Shown here piece by piece: positions 1,962 through 34,786 of a DNA stretch of 64,000 nt. Origin of the DNA: Acutalibacter sp. (GTDB taxonomy: Bacteria > Bacillota > Clostridia > Oscillospirales > Acutalibacteraceae); assembly GCA_022511515.1 (NCBI GenBank), contig JAFLRP010000128.1, positions 3,851-67,850 on the forward strand, written 5' to 3'. Numbering within the stretch: position 1 is the stretch's first letter; each line of letters begins with the position of its first letter. A model generated the notes under the pieces. That model had not been told where the DNA came from. It searched no databases and was given only the letters and a program-made list of their open reading frames with translations. A program made the position numbers and the translations under genes.

Positions 1962-2521
1962 TTTATTTAGAGCTTTTCTGGAGCTTTTTTCAAATCGGAC
2001 TTTTCAGCATCGGGGGCGGGTATGCGGCCATGCCGCTGATCCAGCATCAGGCGGTGGATCTGCACCAATGGCTGACGATGACACAGTTCGCGGACATCAT
2101 GACCATCGCGGAAATGACGCCCGGGCCCATCGCCATCAACTCCGCCACTTTTGTGGGGATACAGACAGCGGGGATCCCCGGAGCCATTGTCGCGACAGTC
2201 GGGTGCGTTTTGCCCTCCTGCGGGATCGTCACGGCGCTGGCTTATCTGTATTACCGTTTTCGGGGGCTTGCCATGGTGCAGGGCGTGTTGCAGGGACTTC
2301 GCCCGGCAGTGGTTGCCATGATCGCCTCCGCCGGCATTTCCCTTATCATCCTTTCATTTTTCGGACAGAGGACGATCCCCGGGGATCTCAGCGGGATCAA
2401 CCCCATTTCGGCGGTACTTTTTGGGGCCGGGCTGTTTGTTTTGCGAAAGTGGAAAGTGAATCCCATCTACGTCATGGCGGGAGCGGGGGTCGCCGGGGTG
2501 CTTTTGTATTCCGTCTTTTGA
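1958..2521 (+). CDS. chromate transporter family protein (ChrA half-size, second of pair)
   Basis: The ATG at 1958 overlaps the preceding stop. The translation MIYLELFWSFFQIGLFSIGGGYAAMPLIQHQAVD...FADIMTIAEMTPGPIAINSATF is typical of the CHR family. Confidence 0.85.
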   Translation: MIYLELFWSFFQIGLFSIGGGYAAMPLIQHQAVDLHQWLTMTQFADIMTIAEMTPGPIAINSATFVGIQTAGIPGAIVATVGCVLPSCGIVTALAYLYYRFRGLAMVQGVLQGLRPAVVAMIASAGISLIILSFFGQRTIPGDLSGINPISAVLFGAGLFVLRKWKVNPIYVMAGAGVAGVLLYSVF

Positions 2522-2548
2522 CCGCTTTACCGGAAAGGAAGTCTGTTC

Positions 2549-3667
2549 ATGCCTTCTCTCAATCTCTTACTCAAGCCCGCTTCCGGCGGCTGCAACATGC
2601 GGTGCAGCTACTGTTTTTACCACGACGAGCAAAAGAACCGCGATACCTTCTCCTACGGCTTGATGTCCGAGGAGACGCTGGAAATTTTGATCAAAAAAGC
2701 GCTGCAATACGCCACCCGGGAATGTTCCTTCGGCTTTCAGGGCGGCGAGCCCACTCTGCGGGGGCTGGATTTCTTCCGCAGGGCGGTGGAGCTGCAAAAG
2801 AAATATAATGTTCACGGTGCGAAAATCACCAACGCCCTTCAGACCAACGGATTGCTGATCGACGAGGAATGGGCGGAATTCCTGCGGGAAAATCACTTTC
2901 TGGTGGGGCTTTCCATTGACGGAACGAAAGACGTACACGACCGGAACCGTCTGGACACAGAAGGGAAAGGCACCTATTCCAGAGCCTTGCGGGCCGCTCA
3001 GCTTCTCCGTGCCCATCAGGTAGACTTTAACGTGTTGACGGTCATCACCGGCAAGGCGGCAGATTCCATCACAAAAATCTACAATTTCTACCGGCGCTCC
3101 GGGCTGCTGTACCAGCAGTACATCCCCTGTCTCGATCCGCTGGGGGAGGAGCGGGGCTCGTCTCCGTACTCCCTGACGCCGGAACAATACGGAAAATTCC
3201 TGAAAACGCTGTTTGACCTCTGGTACCGTGACGTGACCGCCGGGAATTTCATCTATATCCGGTATTTTGAGAATTTGCTTGGCATTCTGCTGGGGCACAG
3301 GCCGGAAAGCTGTACGCTGTGGGGGCATTGTACCATCCAGCACGTGTTGGAGTCGGACGGCTCCGTGTATCCCTGCGATTTCTACTGTCTGGATGAGTGG
3401 AAGTTGGGAAATGTACAGGAAGACGAGTTCGGGATATTTCCGGAAAAAAGCACTGCCCGAAGCTTTTTGGAACGGTCGGTGCAGGGCATGGAGGAATGCA
3501 AAGCCTGCCCGTATTTTGCCCTTTGTCGCGGCGGATGCTGCCGTGACCGGGAGCCGCTTCATATGGAAGGGCAAAGCAAAAATTATTTCTGTTCCGCCTA
3601 TCGGGAATTTTTTGAGTACGCCCTGCCCCGGCTGCGGCAAATTGCAGCGGCATTGCAGGCAAGATAA
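2549..3667 (+). CDS. anaerobic sulfatase-maturating enzyme (radical SAM, SPASM domain)
   Basis: It has the CNMRCSYC CxxxCxxC radical-SAM motif. It also has the conserved anSME strings FQGGEPTL, SIDG and ESDGSVYPCDFY, and a C-terminal Cys cluster CKACPYFALCRGGCC. It is convergent with a sulfatase gene. Confidence 0.88.
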   Translation: MPSLNLLLKPASGGCNMRCSYCFYHDEQKNRDTFSYGLMSEETLEILIKKALQYATRECSFGFQGGEPTLRGLDFFRRAVELQKKYNVHGAKITNALQTNGLLIDEEWAEFLRENHFLVGLSIDGTKDVHDRNRLDTEGKGTYSRALRAAQLLRAHQVDFNVLTVITGKAADSITKIYNFYRRSGLLYQQYIPCLDPLGEERGSSPYSLTPEQYGKFLKTLFDLWYRDVTAGNFIYIRYFENLLGILLGHRPESCTLWGHCTIQHVLESDGSVYPCDFYCLDEWKLGNVQEDEFGIFPEKSTARSFLERSVQGMEECKACPYFALCRGGCCRDREPLHMEGQSKNYFCSAYREFFEYALPRLRQIAAALQAR

Positions 3668-3700
3668 AATGACCCTGAGGAGATCCCTCAGGGTCATTTT
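3666..3700. terminator. bidirectional intrinsic terminator between convergent anSME and sulfatase genes
   Basis: AAAATGACCCTGAGG-AGATC-CCTCAGGGTCATTTT forms a perfect stem, with an A-tract on one side and a T-tract on the other. Confidence 0.6.
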
Positions 3701-3703
3701 CAA

Positions 3704-5158
3704 CTACTTCTGATGTCGTACCCGAAGCTTTTCCGCTCCTTCTTTTCTGCCGGTTTCTTCCAGCCGTTTCAGGTATGGTCCTAAATTATTGTTTGAAGCA
3801 TGGAACGGGCCGCCCTCCTTGAGCACGGTGAGCATGGGGTCAACTTGTCCGTCGGTTTTCAACATCTGCTCGTCGTGCCAATCCAGAATGAGCTTGGCGC
3901 CCCGGGCGCAAAGTTCGGGATACTGCCCCTTCATATCGCGCTGTTCGTGGGGGTCCTCCGTAATGTTGAACAACATTTCGTCATCAAAGAGATGGAAGCC
4001 GTCGTGGTAGGTGCGGACATAGAGCCAATCGCCGAACCGGGCGGAGCGCTGGCACACATGGGCCATCTGGGAAAGCACCAGATAGTCTCTGCCGGTCGGA
4101 ATCCCGTCCATGACCGCCTTGGCAAAGCTTTCGCCGTCCCAGTTGCCGCAGCGGGGAACGCCCAATAAATCCGCCGCAGTGGGCAGCAGGTCCAGATTGT
4201 AGTGAAGGGAATTTTCCGAAATGCCCTTTTGGCCCCCCGGCCATTTCATGATGAAGGGGATATGGCAGGTGGCGTGATCCGCCGTACCGTGCTCGCAGTA
4301 AATGCCCAACTCACCCATGTTTTCCCCGTGGTCCGAGGTGATGATAATGGCGGTGTCGTCGTAGATGCCCTGTTCCCGCAGGAGGTCGGCAAGCTGTCCC
4401 ACCAGATGATCCGCATACCGGATACCGGTGTCGTAGCCGTCGATGACCTTGCGGAGACCGGCCATATCGGAGGCGCTGCCGGGCATCCGGGGACAACCGG
4501 GAACCCCGTTGTCATCGTACATGTTCAACTCGTTGAGGGAGTGTGGCCCCACGTGCTTTTTATGCAGCTCCAGCGTTTCTTCATTCAGCCACGCAGGTAG
4601 CGGGTCATCGGCAAAGGGGTCCCCAAAATTCGCCGGGGCACGGTAGGGAGTGTGGGGATCCCAGAAATGCACGTGTAAAAACCAGTTGTCCCGGTCCCTG
4701 TTGCGGTTCAGCCAGTCCATGGCCACCGGGAGCACCGCTTCGCCGGATTCCAGCCCGTGACCGCCTACGTTGTGGCACTCGTTGAACCCGGCGTTGAACC
4801 ACCAGGAGGAATGCCGCTCCGCAAAGGTGCTGACGGAAGCGGTATACATCCCCGCCCTGCGGAAAATGTTGTGGAAATTGTTATCGTCCACCGAATCCCG
4901 GAACCCTCTGCCCGGTCCTGTCAGACGGCGGTCAGCGGCGGTACCGCCGTGGCCCACTGCGCCGTTTCGGATGCCGAACAGCCCGCTGACCAGCGCGGCC
5001 CGGGAGGGCAGACAGGGCGCGTCGCTGCAGTAATAGTTATCAAAGCGCACGCCGTCCCCGCAGATGCGGTCCATGTTGGGGGTGGTGTTCCGGTGGTAGC
5101 CATAGCACCCCATGTGATCCGGGCGCAGCGTGTCGATGTCGATGAACAGGATCCTCAT
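3704..5158 (-). CDS. sulfatase (Cys-type formylglycine motif, no signal peptide)
   Basis: The translation MRILFIDIDTLRPDHMGCYGY...YYCSDAPCLPSRAALVSG carries the C-x-P-x-R FGly motif. SDHGE is also present. The start at 5158 is preferred because AAAGGGG lies upstream; the ORF track start is 5221. Confidence 0.85.
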   Translation of the reverse strand: MRILFIDIDTLRPDHMGCYGYHRNTTPNMDRICGDGVRFDNYYCSDAPCLPSRAALVSGLFGIRNGAVGHGGTAADRRLTGPGRGFRDSVDDNNFHNIFRRAGMYTASVSTFAERHSSWWFNAGFNECHNVGGHGLESGEAVLPVAMDWLNRNRDRDNWFLHVHFWDPHTPYRAPANFGDPFADDPLPAWLNEETLELHKKHVGPHSLNELNMYDDNGVPGCPRMPGSASDMAGLRKVIDGYDTGIRYADHLVGQLADLLREQGIYDDTAIIITSDHGENMGELGIYCEHGTADHATCHIPFIMKWPGGQKGISENSLHYNLDLLPTAADLLGVPRCGNWDGESFAKAVMDGIPTGRDYLVLSQMAHVCQRSARFGDWLYVRTYHDGFHLFDDEMLFNITEDPHEQRDMKGQYPELCARGAKLILDWHDEQMLKTDGQVDPMLTVLKEGGPFHASNNNLGPYLKRLEETGRKEGAEKLRVRHQK

Positions 5159-7106: not shown

Positions 7107-7182
7107 GTTGAGAAAAGTTTGACAGCCGCCCATTCTCCAAAAGGAAAATCCAAGGGTACAGGCAGTTTCCGGCGGGGCGGGT

Positions 7183-7191
7183 CATACATAT
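7183..7191 (+). promoter_or_regulatory. candidate mother-cell sigma (E/K)-type -10 element for sigK
   Basis: CATACATAT lies ~40 nt upstream of the sigK ATG and resembles the CATACA-T / CATA---TA -10 consensus. ACA sits ~20 nt upstream. The match is by eye only. Confidence 0.3.
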
Positions 7192-7230
7192 TGGGAGCAG
7201 TACCACGCACACGGGAAATGGGGGAAAGCT

Positions 7231-7578
7231 ATGTTTTTGACGCAAATTCTGGACTTTCTATCGGGGATCATCTATCTATTCCTGCACGTCACAGGCGGGG
7301 GGACGTTCCCGAAAGCCCTCAGCGCGCAAGAGGAGAAAAAATGTCTGGAAGAAATGGCACAGGGAAACGAAGCCGCCCGGCGCAAGCTGATCGAACACAA
7401 CCTGCGGCTGGTGGCGCATATTATCAAAAAATATTACGCAAATCAGAACGATCAGGAAGACTTAATTTCCATCGGCACCATCGGGCTCATCAAGGCCGTG
7501 GACAGCTTCAACGCCGACAAGGGAATCAAGCTGTCCAGCTACGCGTCAAGGTGTATAGAAAATACTATTCTCACATAG
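7231..7578 (+). CDS. sigK: sigK 5' segment (pro-sequence plus regions 1.2-2.4; spoIVCB-like), truncated by the intervening element
   Basis: MFLTQILDFLSGIIYLFLHVTGGGTFPKALSAQEEKKCLEEMAQGNEAARRKLIEHNLRLVAHIIKKY...DLISIGTIGLIKAVDSF...SYASRCIEN aligns with B. subtilis pro-sigma-K. After the core at 7555..7563 the frame reads TILT-stop. Confidence 0.88.
   Translation: MFLTQILDFLSGIIYLFLHVTGGGTFPKALSAQEEKKCLEEMAQGNEAARRKLIEHNLRLVAHIIKKYYANQNDQEDLISIGTIGLIKAVDSFNADKGIKLSSYASRCIENTILT
7555..7563 (+). repeat. left copy of the 9-bp recombination core (attL) ATAGAAAAT
   Basis: The identical 9-mer recurs at 34418..34426. Joining the two copies restores RCIEN|EILM in frame. Confidence 0.8.
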
Positions 7579-7799
7579 CGGACTTTTTGGAGTCGGAACA
7601 GGGAAAAGATACTCCCTTTTTGACGGAAAAACCGAAATGGCATTTTGCGTACCAAATCAGCGGCGATTCTTATGTGCTTTCCAAGCGGAAAAATGGGCAG
7701 ACAATTTGCACTTTGCTGGCAGTTCACAGTTTTCCATTTCTCCGTCCGAAAAAACTGGTTGATGCCGAGAAGTTCAATCTCCAATATCCCAAACCAGAG

Positions 7800-8222
7800 A
7801 TGCTAACAACCACAGCGGACAAGCTGCGGTATTACCGCTATCAAAAATCCCTGCTCCAGCGGGAAGTGGCGGAATACGCAGGGATCAATGAAAGCACCTA
7901 TATCGACTATGAAAGCGGAAACAGGGACTATTATCCCATCGACAAAATCCGGCGGATCGCCGATCTGCTGGAAATTCCGACAGAGACACTTCTGGACGAG
8001 TACAATCTGTTCCTCTGTAATCAGACCAAAACGCTGAAAGCCCTGCGGGAGCAGTGCGGGTGGACACAAAGCCAGCTTGCCGAAAAACTTTCCATAAGAC
8101 TTCACACCGTCAAACAGTGGGAGCAGGGAAGGGTGAGAATGACAAGGAAAATGTGGGAAAGACTTCAAAACCTCATGCCATCCAAATCGGTACGATCAGG
8201 TTGTTGCTGTCAAAGGCACTGA
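7800..8222 (+). CDS. XRE-family protein with two helix-turn-helix modules (start uncertain; frame open back to the att core at 7563)
   Basis: The two HTH modules are LRYYRYQKSLLQREVAEYAGINESTYIDYESGNR and LKALREQCGWTQSQLAEKLSIRLHTVKQWEQGR. The first ATG is at 7800, but the frame has no stop from 7563 onward. Confidence 0.6.
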   Translation: MLTTTADKLRYYRYQKSLLQREVAEYAGINESTYIDYESGNRDYYPIDKIRRIADLLEIPTETLLDEYNLFLCNQTKTLKALREQCGWTQSQLAEKLSIRLHTVKQWEQGRVRMTRKMWERLQNLMPSKSVRSGCCCQRH

Positions 8223-9402
8223 GCTGTTCTGCCATACAGAGAACAGCGCCTGTGCCAAGCTGCAGAGGGGACTTGTCGATGACGCCGAAAACACGAGTCA
8301 GGCGTTTGTCGGGCGTGGCGGTTTTCTTAATTTCCAGAGGGCAGAGCTTCCCGTCGCTCTCTAAGATCACATCGATTTCCTTAGAATCACGATCACGATA
8401 GAAATAGAGGTACGGCTCCAGTCCTGCGTTCTGATAGCCTTTCATGATCTCCGATATGGCGAAATTCTCAAGCAGAGCGCCGCTCATGGCACCGCTTTCG
8501 GCTACTTCCGGGGAGGACCAGCGGGTCAGATAGCAAACCAGACCAGTGTCGTAAAAATACACTTTCGGAGTTTTGATCGTGCGCTTGAGGATATTGTTGG
8601 AGTAGGGGTGCAGCAGGAAGATGATCCCCAGCGTTTCCAGAATGTTGATCCATGCCTTTGAGGTTGAAATGTCGATATCTGCATCGTCGGCCAATGCTTT
8701 GTAGTTCAAAAGCTGGGAGCAGCGGGCGGCAACGGCAGTGACAAAGCGATTGAACTTCAGAGCGTCTACGCTGCCCGAAAGCTCCCGCACATCTCGCTCC
8801 ATGTAGGTGGAAAGATAGGACGAATAGAAGACATTTCGGTCATCGTACTGTCCGCTGATGAGACCCGGCATAGAACCTTTCCAAATTCGCCGAAACAGTT
8901 CTGGGGTGGTGACGGGTTGGATCTGATTTTTCTCCAAGAGAAGCTGATTTAGATCTGTTGTAAACGGCACACAGGGCGCACCGATAATCTCCCGCTGGGA
9001 CATGGGGGACATATGCAAAAGCGCAACACGACCTGCCAGAGATTCCTGCACGCCGCGCATGAGACGGAACATTTGCGAGCCGGTCAGCCAGAAATCACCG
9101 GGATTGTGATGCCGGTCAATGTGAATTTTGAGATAAGAGAACAGCTCAGGCGCATATTGAACCTCGTCAATGAGAACAGGCGGCTTGTGAAGCTGCAAGA
9201 ACAGGGCAGGGTCATTCTTTGCCATGTCCCGCTCTGCGAGGTCGTCCAGCGTCACATAGCTCCGTCCGATGTTTTCTTTCTCTGCCAGCTCCCGCAGCAT
9301 AGTCGTTTTTCCTGCCTGCCGAGGTCCGGTCAGCAGAATGGCAGAGTAGGATTTGCTCAATTCCAAGATGCGGTTTTCCATATGTCTGCGAATGTATTTC
9401 AT
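8173..9402 (-). CDS. AAA-family ATPase (AAA_14/DUF4143-type)
   Basis: MKYIRRHMENRILELSKSYSAILLTGPRQAGKTTML carries a Walker A motif and VLIDEVQ a Walker B motif. The architecture is common on mobile DNA. Confidence 0.8.
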   Translation of the reverse strand: MKYIRRHMENRILELSKSYSAILLTGPRQAGKTTMLRELAEKENIGRSYVTLDDLAERDMAKNDPALFLQLHKPPVLIDEVQYAPELFSYLKIHIDRHHNPGDFWLTGSQMFRLMRGVQESLAGRVALLHMSPMSQREIIGAPCVPFTTDLNQLLLEKNQIQPVTTPELFRRIWKGSMPGLISGQYDDRNVFYSSYLSTYMERDVRELSGSVDALKFNRFVTAVAARCSQLLNYKALADDADIDISTSKAWINILETLGIIFLLHPYSNNILKRTIKTPKVYFYDTGLVCYLTRWSSPEVAESGAMSGALLENFAISEIMKGYQNAGLEPYLYFYRDRDSKEIDVILESDGKLCPLEIKKTATPDKRLTRVFGVIDKSPLQLGTGAVLCMAEQLSAFDSNNLIVPIWMA

Positions 9403-9712
9403 AAAAGCACCACCTGTAAGATTATTTCGGCAATTTTTGGGTTTATTCATATTATAGCCGAAATGAGCTGTACAGTCAACAAAATTTCGGCAGATTTATG
9501 ATATAGACAAAAACCTGCCGAAATATCACTGATAAACTCTATTCTGTCAGGTAATGGGAGCAGGGAAGGATAAGGATAGCGAAGAAAATGTGGAAGAGAT
9601 TTCTGTGTAACGGTATAGACGAGAGATCGTTCTTGAGAGAAATACCTTGACATTTTTTTCGCGTCAACGATATTCTGATACTAATTGATCCTAATAATTA
9701 TCGGAGGACGGT

Positions 9713-32715: not shown

Positions 32716-34428
32716 ATGAAACAACCAGACACCCGCAGTTTTGCCATCTATTCCCGGAAATCGAAGTTTACGGGGAGAGGGGAGAGCATCGAAAATCAAA
32801 TTGAGCTGTGCAGACAGCGGCTGCGGTCCATGGAAGTGCCGGAGGAGCAGATCGTTGTGTTCGAGGACGAGGGCTTTTCCGGCGGCAACACCCAGCGCCC
32901 GCAGTTTCAGGCAATGATGCGGGAGATCCGGGTGGGGAACATTCAGGGCGTGATCTGCTACCGTTTAGACCGCATCAGCCGCAACGTGCTGGATTTTGCG
33001 GAGATGCAAAAGGAGTTCGGCGAGCATGGGGTGGATTTCATTTCTCTGCGGGACAATTTCGACACTACCACCCCCACGGGCCGCGCCATGATGCTCATGT
33101 CCTCCGTCTTTGCCCAGTTGGAGCGGGAGACCATCGCAGAGCGGATCCGGGATAACATGTACGAGCTGGCGAAAAGCGGCAGATGGCTGGGCGGGCGCAC
33201 GCCCACCGGGTACAGGAGCATTCCGGTCACGGGCAGCGTGACGGTGGACGGGAAAGTCCGCAGGGCGTATCGGCTGGAAACGATCCCGGAGGAAGCGGAG
33301 ATCGTGCAGCTCATTTACCGCAAATTTTTGGAGACCTACTCTCTTACCAAGGTGGACGCCTATCTGCTGGAGCAGGGGATCAAAACGAAAAATGGCAGGG
33401 AGTTTACCCGCTTCTCCATCGGCAATATTCTCCGCAACCCGGTCTATGCGGTGGCGGACGAGGCGGCGTGGGAATACTTTGAGCAAAATCAAGTGGAGGT
33501 CTACGCGCAGCGCGGAGATTTTGACGGAAACTGCGGCGTGATGGCATACAACAAGACCTCCCAGAAGCCGGGGAAAACCAACCAGACGCGGGCCATGGAG
33601 GATTGGATCGTCTCGGTGGGCAGGCACCAAGGGTTGATCTCCGGCGCGGACTGGGTGCGGGTGCAGGAAATCCTGGACCGGAACAAATCGAAATCCTACC
33701 GAAAGCCGAAAAGCAATGTGGCGCTGCTGTCTGGTTTGCTGTTCTGCGGAAACTGCGGCAGCTATATGCGCCCCAAGTTGACCATTCGACAGAACGCCGC
33801 GGGCGAGTACATTTACACCTATCTGTGCGAAAAGAAGGAACGCAGCCACGGATCGGTATGCAAACAAAAGAACATAAACGGCAACGAGCTGGATAAAGCG
33901 GTTTGCAAGCAAATTTGTGCGTTGACGGAAGACACCTCCGAGTTTCAGAAACAGATGAAAAAGGTCAGGACGGCGTTTGAGGGCAGTAACAGCGGGCATA
34001 GGAGCCGCTTGGACGCGCTGATGAAAGAGAGCAAGGAAAACGAGGTGAAGATCAAAAATCTGGTGGCAAGTCTGGAAACCGCGGCGGGGACGGCTTCCGC
34101 CGAGTATATCACCGGGCAGATCAACGAGCTGCATGAAAAGCAGCAGAAGCTGGAAAGCCGGATCGCCGAACTGGAAAGCCTGACTTGGGACACCGCGTAT
34201 TCCGACGCCGATTTTGCCGTGCTGCAGGAGGCTCTGGAAAACTTCAGCGTTGCCTTTGACACCATGACCGTGGAACAGAAGCGGGCGGCGCTGCGGGTGT
34301 TCGTGCGGAAAATCGTCTGGGACGGGGAAAATATCCATGTCTATCTCTTCGGCGACCCGGAGGGAGAAGTCGATTTCAGCAGCTTTCCGGCGGAATGTGT
34401 AGAGCCGATCGGCACGGATAGAAAATGA
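32716..34428 (+). CDS. large serine recombinase (SpoIVCA-like) of the sigK intervening element
   Basis: FAIYSRKSKF...ESIENQ carries the Ser nucleophile region. VICYRLDRISRN, the zinc-ribbon cysteines CGNCGSYM...YLCEKK...SVCKQ and a C-terminal coiled coil are present. The stop TGA spans the core/sigK boundary. Confidence 0.9.
   Translation: MKQPDTRSFAIYSRKSKFTGRGESIENQIELCRQRLRSMEVPEEQIVVFEDEGFSGGNTQRPQFQAMMREIRVGNIQGVICYRLDRISRNVLDFAEMQKEFGEHGVDFISLRDNFDTTTPTGRAMMLMSSVFAQLERETIAERIRDNMYELAKSGRWLGGRTPTGYRSIPVTGSVTVDGKVRRAYRLETIPEEAEIVQLIYRKFLETYSLTKVDAYLLEQGIKTKNGREFTRFSIGNILRNPVYAVADEAAWEYFEQNQVEVYAQRGDFDGNCGVMAYNKTSQKPGKTNQTRAMEDWIVSVGRHQGLISGADWVRVQEILDRNKSKSYRKPKSNVALLSGLLFCGNCGSYMRPKLTIRQNAAGEYIYTYLCEKKERSHGSVCKQKNINGNELDKAVCKQICALTEDTSEFQKQMKKVRTAFEGSNSGHRSRLDALMKESKENEVKIKNLVASLETAAGTASAEYITGQINELHEKQQKLESRIAELESLTWDTAYSDADFAVLQEALENFSVAFDTMTVEQKRAALRVFVRKIVWDGENIHVYLFGDPEGEVDFSSFPAECVEPIGTDRK
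34418..34426 (+). repeat. right copy of the 9-bp recombination core (attR) ATAGAAAAT
   Basis: It is identical to 7555..7563 and is read in the same codon phase (xAT AGA AAA T). Confidence 0.8.
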
Positions 34429-34786
34429 AATCCTCATGTTTTTCCGCAGCGGGAAAAAGAGCGCGCAGGATATTTCCATCAACGAGCCTATTGAGACGGA
34501 CAAATCAGGGAACACGCTGACGCTGATGGATACCATGGCGGTGGACGACACCATCATCGACAATCTGGATATCAAGATGAAAAGCGAGAAGCTGTACGGG
34601 CTTCTGGACAGCGTGCTGACCCGGCGGGAAAGGAGCATCATCTGGCTGCGGTACGGCTTGGGCGGCGGAAAACCCTTGCCCCAGCGGGTGGTGGCGAAGA
34701 AACTGGGCATTTCCCGGAGCTATGTATCCCGCATCGAAAAAAAGGCCCTGCAAAAGCTGCGGGGGCAGTTTGATGAGGAAGAATGA
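34427..34786 (+). CDS. sigK: sigK 3' segment (regions 3-4; spoIIIC-like)
   Basis: EILMFFRSGKKSAQDISINEPIETDKSGNTLTLMD...RERSIIWLRYGLGGGKPLPQRVVAKKLGISRSYVSRIEKKALQKL contains the region 4.2 HTH. It continues the RCIEN frame of the 5' segment. Confidence 0.88.
   Translation, partial: EILMFFRSGKKSAQDISINEPIETDKSGNTLTLMDTMAVDDTIIDNLDIKMKSEKLYGLLDSVLTRRERSIIWLRYGLGGGKPLPQRVVAKKLGISRSYVSRIEKKALQKLRGQFDEEE

Follow-up and report, generated by a model that had tools for sequence, protein, structure and literature searches.

In skin-type elements, such as skin of B. subtilis with its recombinase SpoIVCA and skinCd of C. difficile, an element carrying a large serine recombinase splits sigK at a short core, and excision, presumably in the mother cell, rebuilds the gene. 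Serine integrases are strictly directional, and reversal normally needs a separate factor that is hard to find. Among the SSV1-type archaeal integrases, which belong to the tyrosine family, attP lies inside the int gene and this gene is partitioned on integration; both split parts are essential, and the integrated gene is inactive. Here we analyze a 26,863-bp insert in sigK of Acutalibacter sp., found on a stretch of 64,000 nucleotides (GenBank assembly GCA_022511515.1, contig JAFLRP010000128.1, positions 3,851 to 67,850) that is called the window below. It too carries a large serine recombinase and splits sigK at a short core. Very probably, its attP lies inside one long recombinase gene which integration splits, and the detached part, called the tail here, may have a role in the direction of recombination.

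Several described systems are relevant to this reading. The direction of skinCd recombination is set by a separate small recombination directionality factor (RDF), CD1234 (PMC5025042). In Myxococcus phage Mx8 attP lies within the integrase gene (IntP/IntX), integration gives the gene a new 3′ end, and the altered integrase is reported to be active with changed specificity (PMC6070905). The SPbeta-like Bacillus phage vB_BsuS-Goe14 has a SpoIVCA-related large serine integrase with attP in the 3′ coding region; on integration into spoVK the integrase is shortened by 131 residues and a 97-residue open reading frame (ORF) represents the lost C-terminus; speculatively, its authors assign integration to the long form and excision to the short one (bioRxiv 10.1101/2021.11.22.469490). 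A serine integrase gene spanning attP has been described this once before, and no attP-spanning recombinase ORF is described in the skin, skinCd and gin literature that was searched. In engineered integrase-RDF fusions a flexibly linked C-terminal polypeptide binds the second DNA-binding domain (DBD2) and the coiled-coil hinge and sets direction (PMC12286644, PMC11722253), and long C-terminal extensions of some integrases have been suggested to occupy the RDF site (PMC12286644).

In the window the insert occupies positions 7563-34425, with breaks at 7562/7563 and 34425/34426. The 5′ frame of the integrated sigK continues past the junction to a TAG at 7576-7578, and in an intact homologue of 232 residues both sigK parts abut and form one ORF, ..ARCIQNEILMHFR... 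Judged by its split sigK, its recombinase encoded at one end and its short identical core, the insert belongs with the skin-type sigK-intervening elements. Its main features are these:

7231 to 7562, plus strand: 5′ part of sigK (pro-sigma-K N-terminus, region 2), recognized by Pfam Sigma70_r2.
7555 to 7563, no strand: attL core ATAGAAAAT, the same 9-mer as at attR, with the likely crossover AA at 7561-7562.
7563 to 8222, plus strand: the whole tail ORF, read here as the C-terminal part of the split recombinase gene; 219 sense codons and a stop, with residue 1 aligning to residues 570-572 of unsplit relatives.
32716 to 34428, plus strand: large serine recombinase, 570 residues as integrated, with Pfam Resolvase, Recombinase and Zn_ribbon_recom.
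34418 to 34426, no strand: attR core ATAGAAAAT, the same 9-mer as at attL, with the likely crossover AA at 34424-34425.
34427 to 34786, plus strand: 3′ part of sigK (regions 3-4), recognized by Pfam Sigma70_r4 and colinear with the intact sigK of genome G061.

The recombinase ORF closes with ...GGC ACG GAT AGA AAA TGA. Its stop codon (34426-34428) is supplied by the sigK codons AAT GAA, the GA at 34427-34428 being that of the GAA codon, so that the origin of the stop in the sigK flank, claimed by a first-pass annotation of the same DNA, stands. The annotation had also taken the T of this stop as the last base of the core. This is right for the 9-mer of the window; in relatives the identity between attL and attR is reduced to the dinucleotide AA (window 7561-7562 and 34424-34425). 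With this as the probable point of crossover, all three bases of the TGA may be assigned to the host. The attP of the window element also carries a T at the first position of the stop. When the right end is joined to the left end in silico, the junction reads ...GAT AGA AAA TAC TAT TCT CAC ATA GCG GAC..., in phase with the ORF that closes at 8222, and the predicted peptide across it is ..GTDRKYYSHIADF... Re-derived in this way, the junction agrees with the one proposed earlier.

According to the first-pass annotation, excision would extend the recombinase from 570 to about 790 residues by a tail with two helix-turn-helix (HTH) domains, or else place the HTH ORF under translation of the recombinase gene on the circle only. 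Unsplit relatives point strongly in this direction. One of them (L101) has a single intact ORF of 794 residues on an 8.2-kb contig, consisting of recombinase, low-complexity linker and tail, and the metagenome-assembled genome that holds it has an uninterrupted sigK of 232 residues. The database search seeded with the tail of L101 added about 20 proteins, 747-812 residues long, that combine Resolvase, Recombinase, Zn_ribbon and HTH domains, while the search for longer proteins seeded with the window tail returned no fused form, a limit of the word index. Residues 1-568 of the window recombinase align to residues 1-569 of the unsplit proteins and tail residue 1 aligns to residues 570-572, without gap or overlap. 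From this end-to-end colinearity it follows that both window ORFs derive from a single gene, with attP as the exact point of the cut. The order in the whole gene is catalytic domain, first DNA-binding domain (DBD1), DBD2 with its coiled-coil, a disordered linker of about 45 residues, a beta module and two XRE-type HTH domains, and in the structural model the crossover falls in the disordered linker.

How widely is this arrangement shared? The comparison of paired ends comprised eight other genomes in which attR could be located besides the tail, among them four cultured isolates and one complete genome; Anaeromassilibacillus senegalensis, Dysosmobacter segnis, Flintibacter faecis and Ruminococcaceae bacterium D5 belong to this set. 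In all eight the recombinase ends with ...GAT AGC GAA TGA, where the TGA comes from the sigK codons AAT GAR, and the in-silico join stays open for 201-209 residues up to the natural stop of the tail. With the window included, the joined frame is open in nine of nine paired elements. A scan with one genome per species gave 231 relatives, the best 80 of which were examined. The sigK 5′ fragment stands immediately upstream of the tail in 72 of these 80, and the tail lies in frame +2 of sigK in 69 of the 72. Of the 72 left ends, 66 can be read in frame from the crossover onwards without meeting a stop (two of the six exceptions are anchoring errors, and the overall figure is taken as about 67), and those with kept continuity span 41-87% identity. 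Conservation of the frame across attP in homologous elements was the test that the first-pass annotation had named, and the family passes it. A search of the representative library gave 39 clusters at E 1e-30 or better, nearly all of 160-210 residues; fused forms are hidden there because they are clustered with recombinases. From these alignments, the host-donated stop and the attP-spanning frame are a family-wide design.

The sequence around the crossover has the look of an attachment site as well. Over 70 loci the P′ arm keeps the motif ..CTAT.C....C..A.CGG, and this is mirrored, by eye, by ..CCG.T..G....G.ATAG at the 3′ end of the recombinase gene, which gives imperfect inverted-repeat arms around a 2-bp crossover. 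The exact search of JGI metagenome contigs for the predicted attP junction of the window element gave no match. A degenerate attP pattern had no match within the window either, as expected of an integrated copy.

Some loci show variations on this layout. In the complete genome AP018533.1 the attL tail (L056) and the attR recombinase (L124) lie about 140 kb apart, and the element that interrupts sigK there is very large or composite. Contig CAJTNL010000019.1 has a tandem of two related elements (L036 and L037) behind a single sigK 5′ fragment, and their internal junction is joined in an attP-like way with a frameshift (L037 ORFs 663-2237 and 2093-3118). In three homologues (P0139, P0142 and P0148) the tail was called in one ORF with an unrelated N-terminus (FtsX-like permease, SpaA-type domain, poly(A) polymerase/HD); these cases suggest that relatives insert in frame into other host genes. 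In L052, L064, L085 and L106 a core-like sequence outside sigK precedes the tail ORF (upstream of 2501), for example ..ATTGATAA directly followed by TGCTATAC.., and such places may be secondary or pseudo-attachment sites. In L083, L096, L103 and their relatives a perfect Shine-Dalgarno sequence with an ATG (GAGGTGGAAAACCATG) lies about 40 nt past the crossover, out of frame; this ATG opens a mini-ORF of only 13 codons, which overlaps the start of the beta module.

The tail itself can be divided into three parts:

7563 to 7625, plus strand: tail codons 1-21, the P′ arm (codons 1-8) and the rest of the disordered linker; the AlphaFold2 predicted local distance difference test (pLDDT) is about 40.
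7629 to 7742, plus strand: three-strand beta module, tail residues 23-60, KW...YVLSK...LLAVHSFPFL, placed by AlphaFold2 strands, conservation and the ratio of nonsynonymous to synonymous polymorphism (pN/pS).
7812 to 8174, plus strand: two tandem XRE-type HTH domains, tail residues 84-204, matched by Pfam HTH_31, HTH_19 and HTH_3 in two stretches.

The first ATG in the tail frame is codon 80 (7800), which agrees with the earlier statement that none occurs in the first 79 codons. The 143 database homologues are mostly 160-210 residues long and cover 85-92% of the tail ORF, including what precedes this ATG. Their alignment has a conserved N-terminal block, KW..YVLSK..G....PL.VHSFPFLRP.KL.DAEKFN, with near-invariant residues L52, F57, F59, L60 and P62, and M80 varies across the family. 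Two close relatives, about 81% identical, were used to compute pN/pS, which is 0.18-0.24 in residues 23-79, 0.16-0.18 in the HTH part and about 1.2-1.5, at few sites, in residues 9-22. Residues 23-79 and the HTH part are, by this sequence measure, under purifying selection, and the earlier argument that 79 additional stop-free codons are unlikely to arise by chance gains force from it: these codons are genuine coding sequence, kept as protein by the homologues. Codons 1-8 past the crossover behave differently: variation is lowest at third positions, and of the frames the coding one has the smallest synonymous share, a constraint at the DNA level which is expected for the P′ arm of attP. In codons 9-21 the family alignment has a coding pattern of variation.

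The AlphaFold2 model of the tail has a mean pLDDT of 83. Residues 1-21 are disordered, the strands 27-33, 36-43 and 46-53 run antiparallel, and residues 84-204 form two five-helix XRE HTH domains with pLDDT >90, as the first reading of two XRE modules would have it. Foldseek matched this model to the HTH domains of SinR, C-protein and HipB-like proteins, with template-modelling (TM) scores of 0.8-0.9 per domain to SinR and C.AhdI. The beta module had no match in this Foldseek search or in the Atlas search of residues 20-82, which returned generic XRE HTH only. The tail was found in no phage of the phage collection.

At its 3′ end the tail overlaps by its last 50 bp (8173-8222) the 3′ end of a convergent DUF4143/AAA_14 ATPase gene (8173-9450, minus strand), and its extra C-terminal residues (..PSKSVRSGCCCQRH) are common only to the nearest homologue, P0004. 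At the other side, the tail frame is open for 148 codons further upstream in the sigK 5′ coding region (window 7119-7562), including a GTG at 7552; in relatives this opening depends on sigK codon choice (ATT GAA giving TGA), so it is apparently accidental.

The recombinase has the domains usual for its family. Pfam matches are PF00239 at residues 10-157, PF07508 (DBD1) at 191-323 and PF13408 (the zinc ribbon of DBD2) at 337-400, and a heptad-rich stretch at about 400-500 suggests a coiled-coil inserted in DBD2. A strong Shine-Dalgarno sequence, GGGGGAG, precedes its ATG, and no convincing promoter of the sigma-E or sigma-K type was seen by eye upstream of the gene. Relatives of this core in the phage collection are distant, with identity of 40% or less, and Goe14 is not among the hits listed.

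Does the detached tail still fit its recombinase? For the complex prediction, recombinase residues 320-570 formed one chain and the tail the other, and each chain was given a separate alignment. The interface score ipSAE was 0.71 (runs 0.71, 0.74 and 0.63), against 0.07 for the best control; when the tool was calibrated, 58 of 80 solved complexes attained this mark, as against 2 of 110 mismatched pairs. The three runs agreed in at least 60% of their contacts, with partner pLDDT of at least 73. In the model, tail residues 48-60 (ICTLLAVHSFPFL) run antiparallel to recombinase residues 537-547 (GENIHVYLFGD), the last strand of DBD2, and further contacts link tail residues 23-39 and 48-60 to the recombinase at 387-417 and 495-503, probably the helices leaving and re-entering the coiled-coil. 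Overall the modelled contacts on the recombinase cover 387-417, 495-503 and 537-561, and the interface residues of the tail are the most conserved ones of the family. The beta module is thus predicted to dock at the hinge of DBD2 and the coiled-coil.

Taken together, we hold the attP-spanning architecture of the gene, as it is read from the sequences, with high confidence, and the directional role of the tail, which leans on the complex model, with moderate confidence. Integration into sigK cuts the recombinase gene within the linker. The core of 570 residues remains at the right end, closed by a TGA out of the sigK codons AAT GAA, and the tail of 219 codons is stranded at the opposite, left end, where it directly follows the sigK 5′ fragment and has neither a conserved start codon nor a ribosome-binding site. 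Excision would restore both sigK on the chromosome and the 789-codon recombinase gene on the circle, and since excision and integration join or cut the gene, recombination would edit the gene of its own enzyme. The beta module would pack on the last strand of DBD2 and the base of the coiled-coil, the surface used by RDFs in other serine integrases, and the two HTH domains would bring in contacts to DNA, either at an operator or beside att. The long and the short form could then differ in their preferred direction, for example with the long form for integration or as a block to re-integration and the short form for excision. We put forward only tentatively, as somewhat less than an even chance, that the recombinase carries its own directionality module, which recombination attaches and detaches, so that the circle fixes one direction and cutting releases the other. 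With the same reserve, one gene might serve as a state-dependent, self-resetting switch with no separate RDF, and might make developmental excision irreversible in sigK elements.

A number of observations weigh against the picture just given. Locus L068 has TGA (near 1823) as the first codon past the crossover, where relatives have TGC, and its rejoined gene would end at the junction. L081, L090 and L105 have single-base frameshifts in the linker. It follows that the fusion is not indispensable, or that those copies are decaying or mis-assembled. The contig of L101 has no terminal overlap by which circularity could be demonstrated, and binning of metagenome-assembled genomes can err. The complex model may merely recall the intramolecular packing of unsplit homologues, and the predicted surface is only putatively equivalent to the RDF site of SPbeta. 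A PDB sequence search with the recombinase aligned only the catalytic domain to the integrases of SPbeta, phiC31 and TP901-1, so the RDF-contact residues are not mappable by sequence. Finally, the TTG at 7620 (codon 20) is kept in the closest relatives; together with GTG and ATG candidates in other subfamilies, it makes separate expression of the tail in the integrated state possible as far as the sequence can tell.

Such expression is the basis of the strongest alternative, which we regard as rather unlikely. The tail would act in trans while the element is integrated. Transcription from the mother-cell-specific sigK promoter would read through the truncated sigK 5′ ORF, and translation would begin weakly at an internal TTG (7620 or 7587), possibly where ribosomes re-initiate once the sigK fragment has ended at 7576-7578. 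Bound to the 570-residue recombinase, the product would serve as its directionality factor and set off excision at the proper time and place, and the fusion on the circle would merely keep this factor attached. The tail ORF indeed follows the sigK 5′ part directly, in the same orientation and without an intervening terminator-like site, homologues are often annotated from near codon 20 by gene callers, and it was as two separate chains that the modelled complex passed. Fusions of integrase and RDF are also excision-active in other systems (PMC12286644). However, the only start candidates of the tail frame before ATG 7800 are the TTG codons 9, 20 and 51 and the GTG codon 38. None has a 4-base Shine-Dalgarno match before it, in accordance with the earlier failure to find a ribosome-binding site. 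In a control, 15 of 36 long ORFs of the window have such a match, but the set includes non-genes, so the missing match is only weak evidence. The TTG at 7587 reads TTC in the closest relatives, and about 21 of the 80 loci, from three subfamilies, lack any ATG, GTG or TTG ahead of the beta module, which disfavors action in trans as a general rule; for the subfamily of the window itself it is possible. Moreover, if the tail were an RDF, the full-length form on the circle would be locked towards excision, and integration would then be hard to explain.

The attP-spanning gene has a second competitor, to which we give a small chance: the tail would be an ordinary independent XRE regulator, starting at ATG 7800 or an upstream TTG, the frame continuity would be a functionless relic, and the long protein would be unmade or would act no differently. 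The genome's own annotation does call a 140-residue protein (P0011) from ATG 7800, tandem XRE HTH domains are typical of stand-alone regulators, and continuity is lost in the few relatives named above. This competitor leaves unexplained why residues 23-79, before that ATG, are conserved under purifying selection when M80 is not conserved, why conservation in the N-terminal part is highest at the residues with predicted recombinase contacts, and why continuity is found in the nine paired elements and about 67 of the 72 left ends and unsplit genes in some 20 database proteins. Chance has a practically negligible probability: a frame match alone is a 1-in-3 event, and the same frame runs open for those 148 codons within sigK, where long open alternative frames do occur, yet the left ends, unsplit genes, colinearity, paired elements and pN/pS across the family refute a chance origin.

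The cargo of the sigK element in the window is of non-phage type: a DUF4143 ATPase, a Fic fragment, an aminotransferase/DIT1-GNAT operon, a tyrosine integrase, a UvrD-nuclease plus Dcm-Vsr pair, an ABC-2 exporter operon and PadR. Some unsplit genes lie on long scaffolds among Mob, RepA_N and TnpV genes; one of 812 residues (L129, on a 401-kb scaffold) lies between two Mob/RepA_N sets and beside TnpV, which looks like an accretion of mobilizable elements. A related 8-kb sigK element in another genome (L131) encodes a Rep protein, PF23343 REP_ORF2-G2P, at 3149-4192 on the minus strand, and no PF23343-like Rep gene was recognized in the 27-kb element of the window. The small elements may thus pass through a free, replicating stage.

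In this family, a DNA rearrangement rewrites the gene of the enzyme that performs it, adding or removing a tail predicted to sit at the site of directionality factors. Should the two forms differ in direction, this would be a natural one-gene toggle and a compact memory-switch design for synthetic biology, and it would explain why elements that interrupt sporulation genes do not go back in once they have been excised during development. For annotation, the architecture means that in gut Clostridia several hundred "orphan" double-HTH ORFs beside split sigK are detached C-termini of recombinases and not independent regulators. The presence of the same design in several cultured relatives (Flintibacter faecis BX5, Dysosmobacter segnis BX15, Anaeromassilibacillus senegalensis An867 and Ruminococcaceae bacterium D5) makes it directly testable.

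Compared with the described systems, the element of the window has in common with Goe14 a serine integrase, attP in the coding region and a sporulation gene as target. Goe14 differs in being an active phage of 130 kb with the core AAG, and its tail is reported to have no recognizable domain, whereas the window element targets sigK, has a beta module and two XRE HTH domains, takes its stop from the host and is a cargo island without phage genes; the two tails were compared by description only. In Mx8 the enzyme is a tyrosine recombinase with unrelated chemistry, its C-terminus is replaced and not cut by a host stop, and integration does not strand a tail with DNA-binding domains as an ORF of its own. 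In contrast to the SSV1-type integrases, the 570 residues retained here hold every known domain of a serine integrase. The skin-type elements, as described, have the recombinase as a complete gene with a separate RDF, unlike the element of the window. The engineered integrase-RDF fusions are artificial and constitutive, while the fusion proposed here would be natural, made and broken by recombination itself. What is new beside these systems is the host-donated stop with frame continuity in nine paired elements, the exact colinearity with unsplit genes, the placing of attP in a disordered linker, and the controlled prediction that the detached module docks on the hinge of DBD2 and the coiled-coil.

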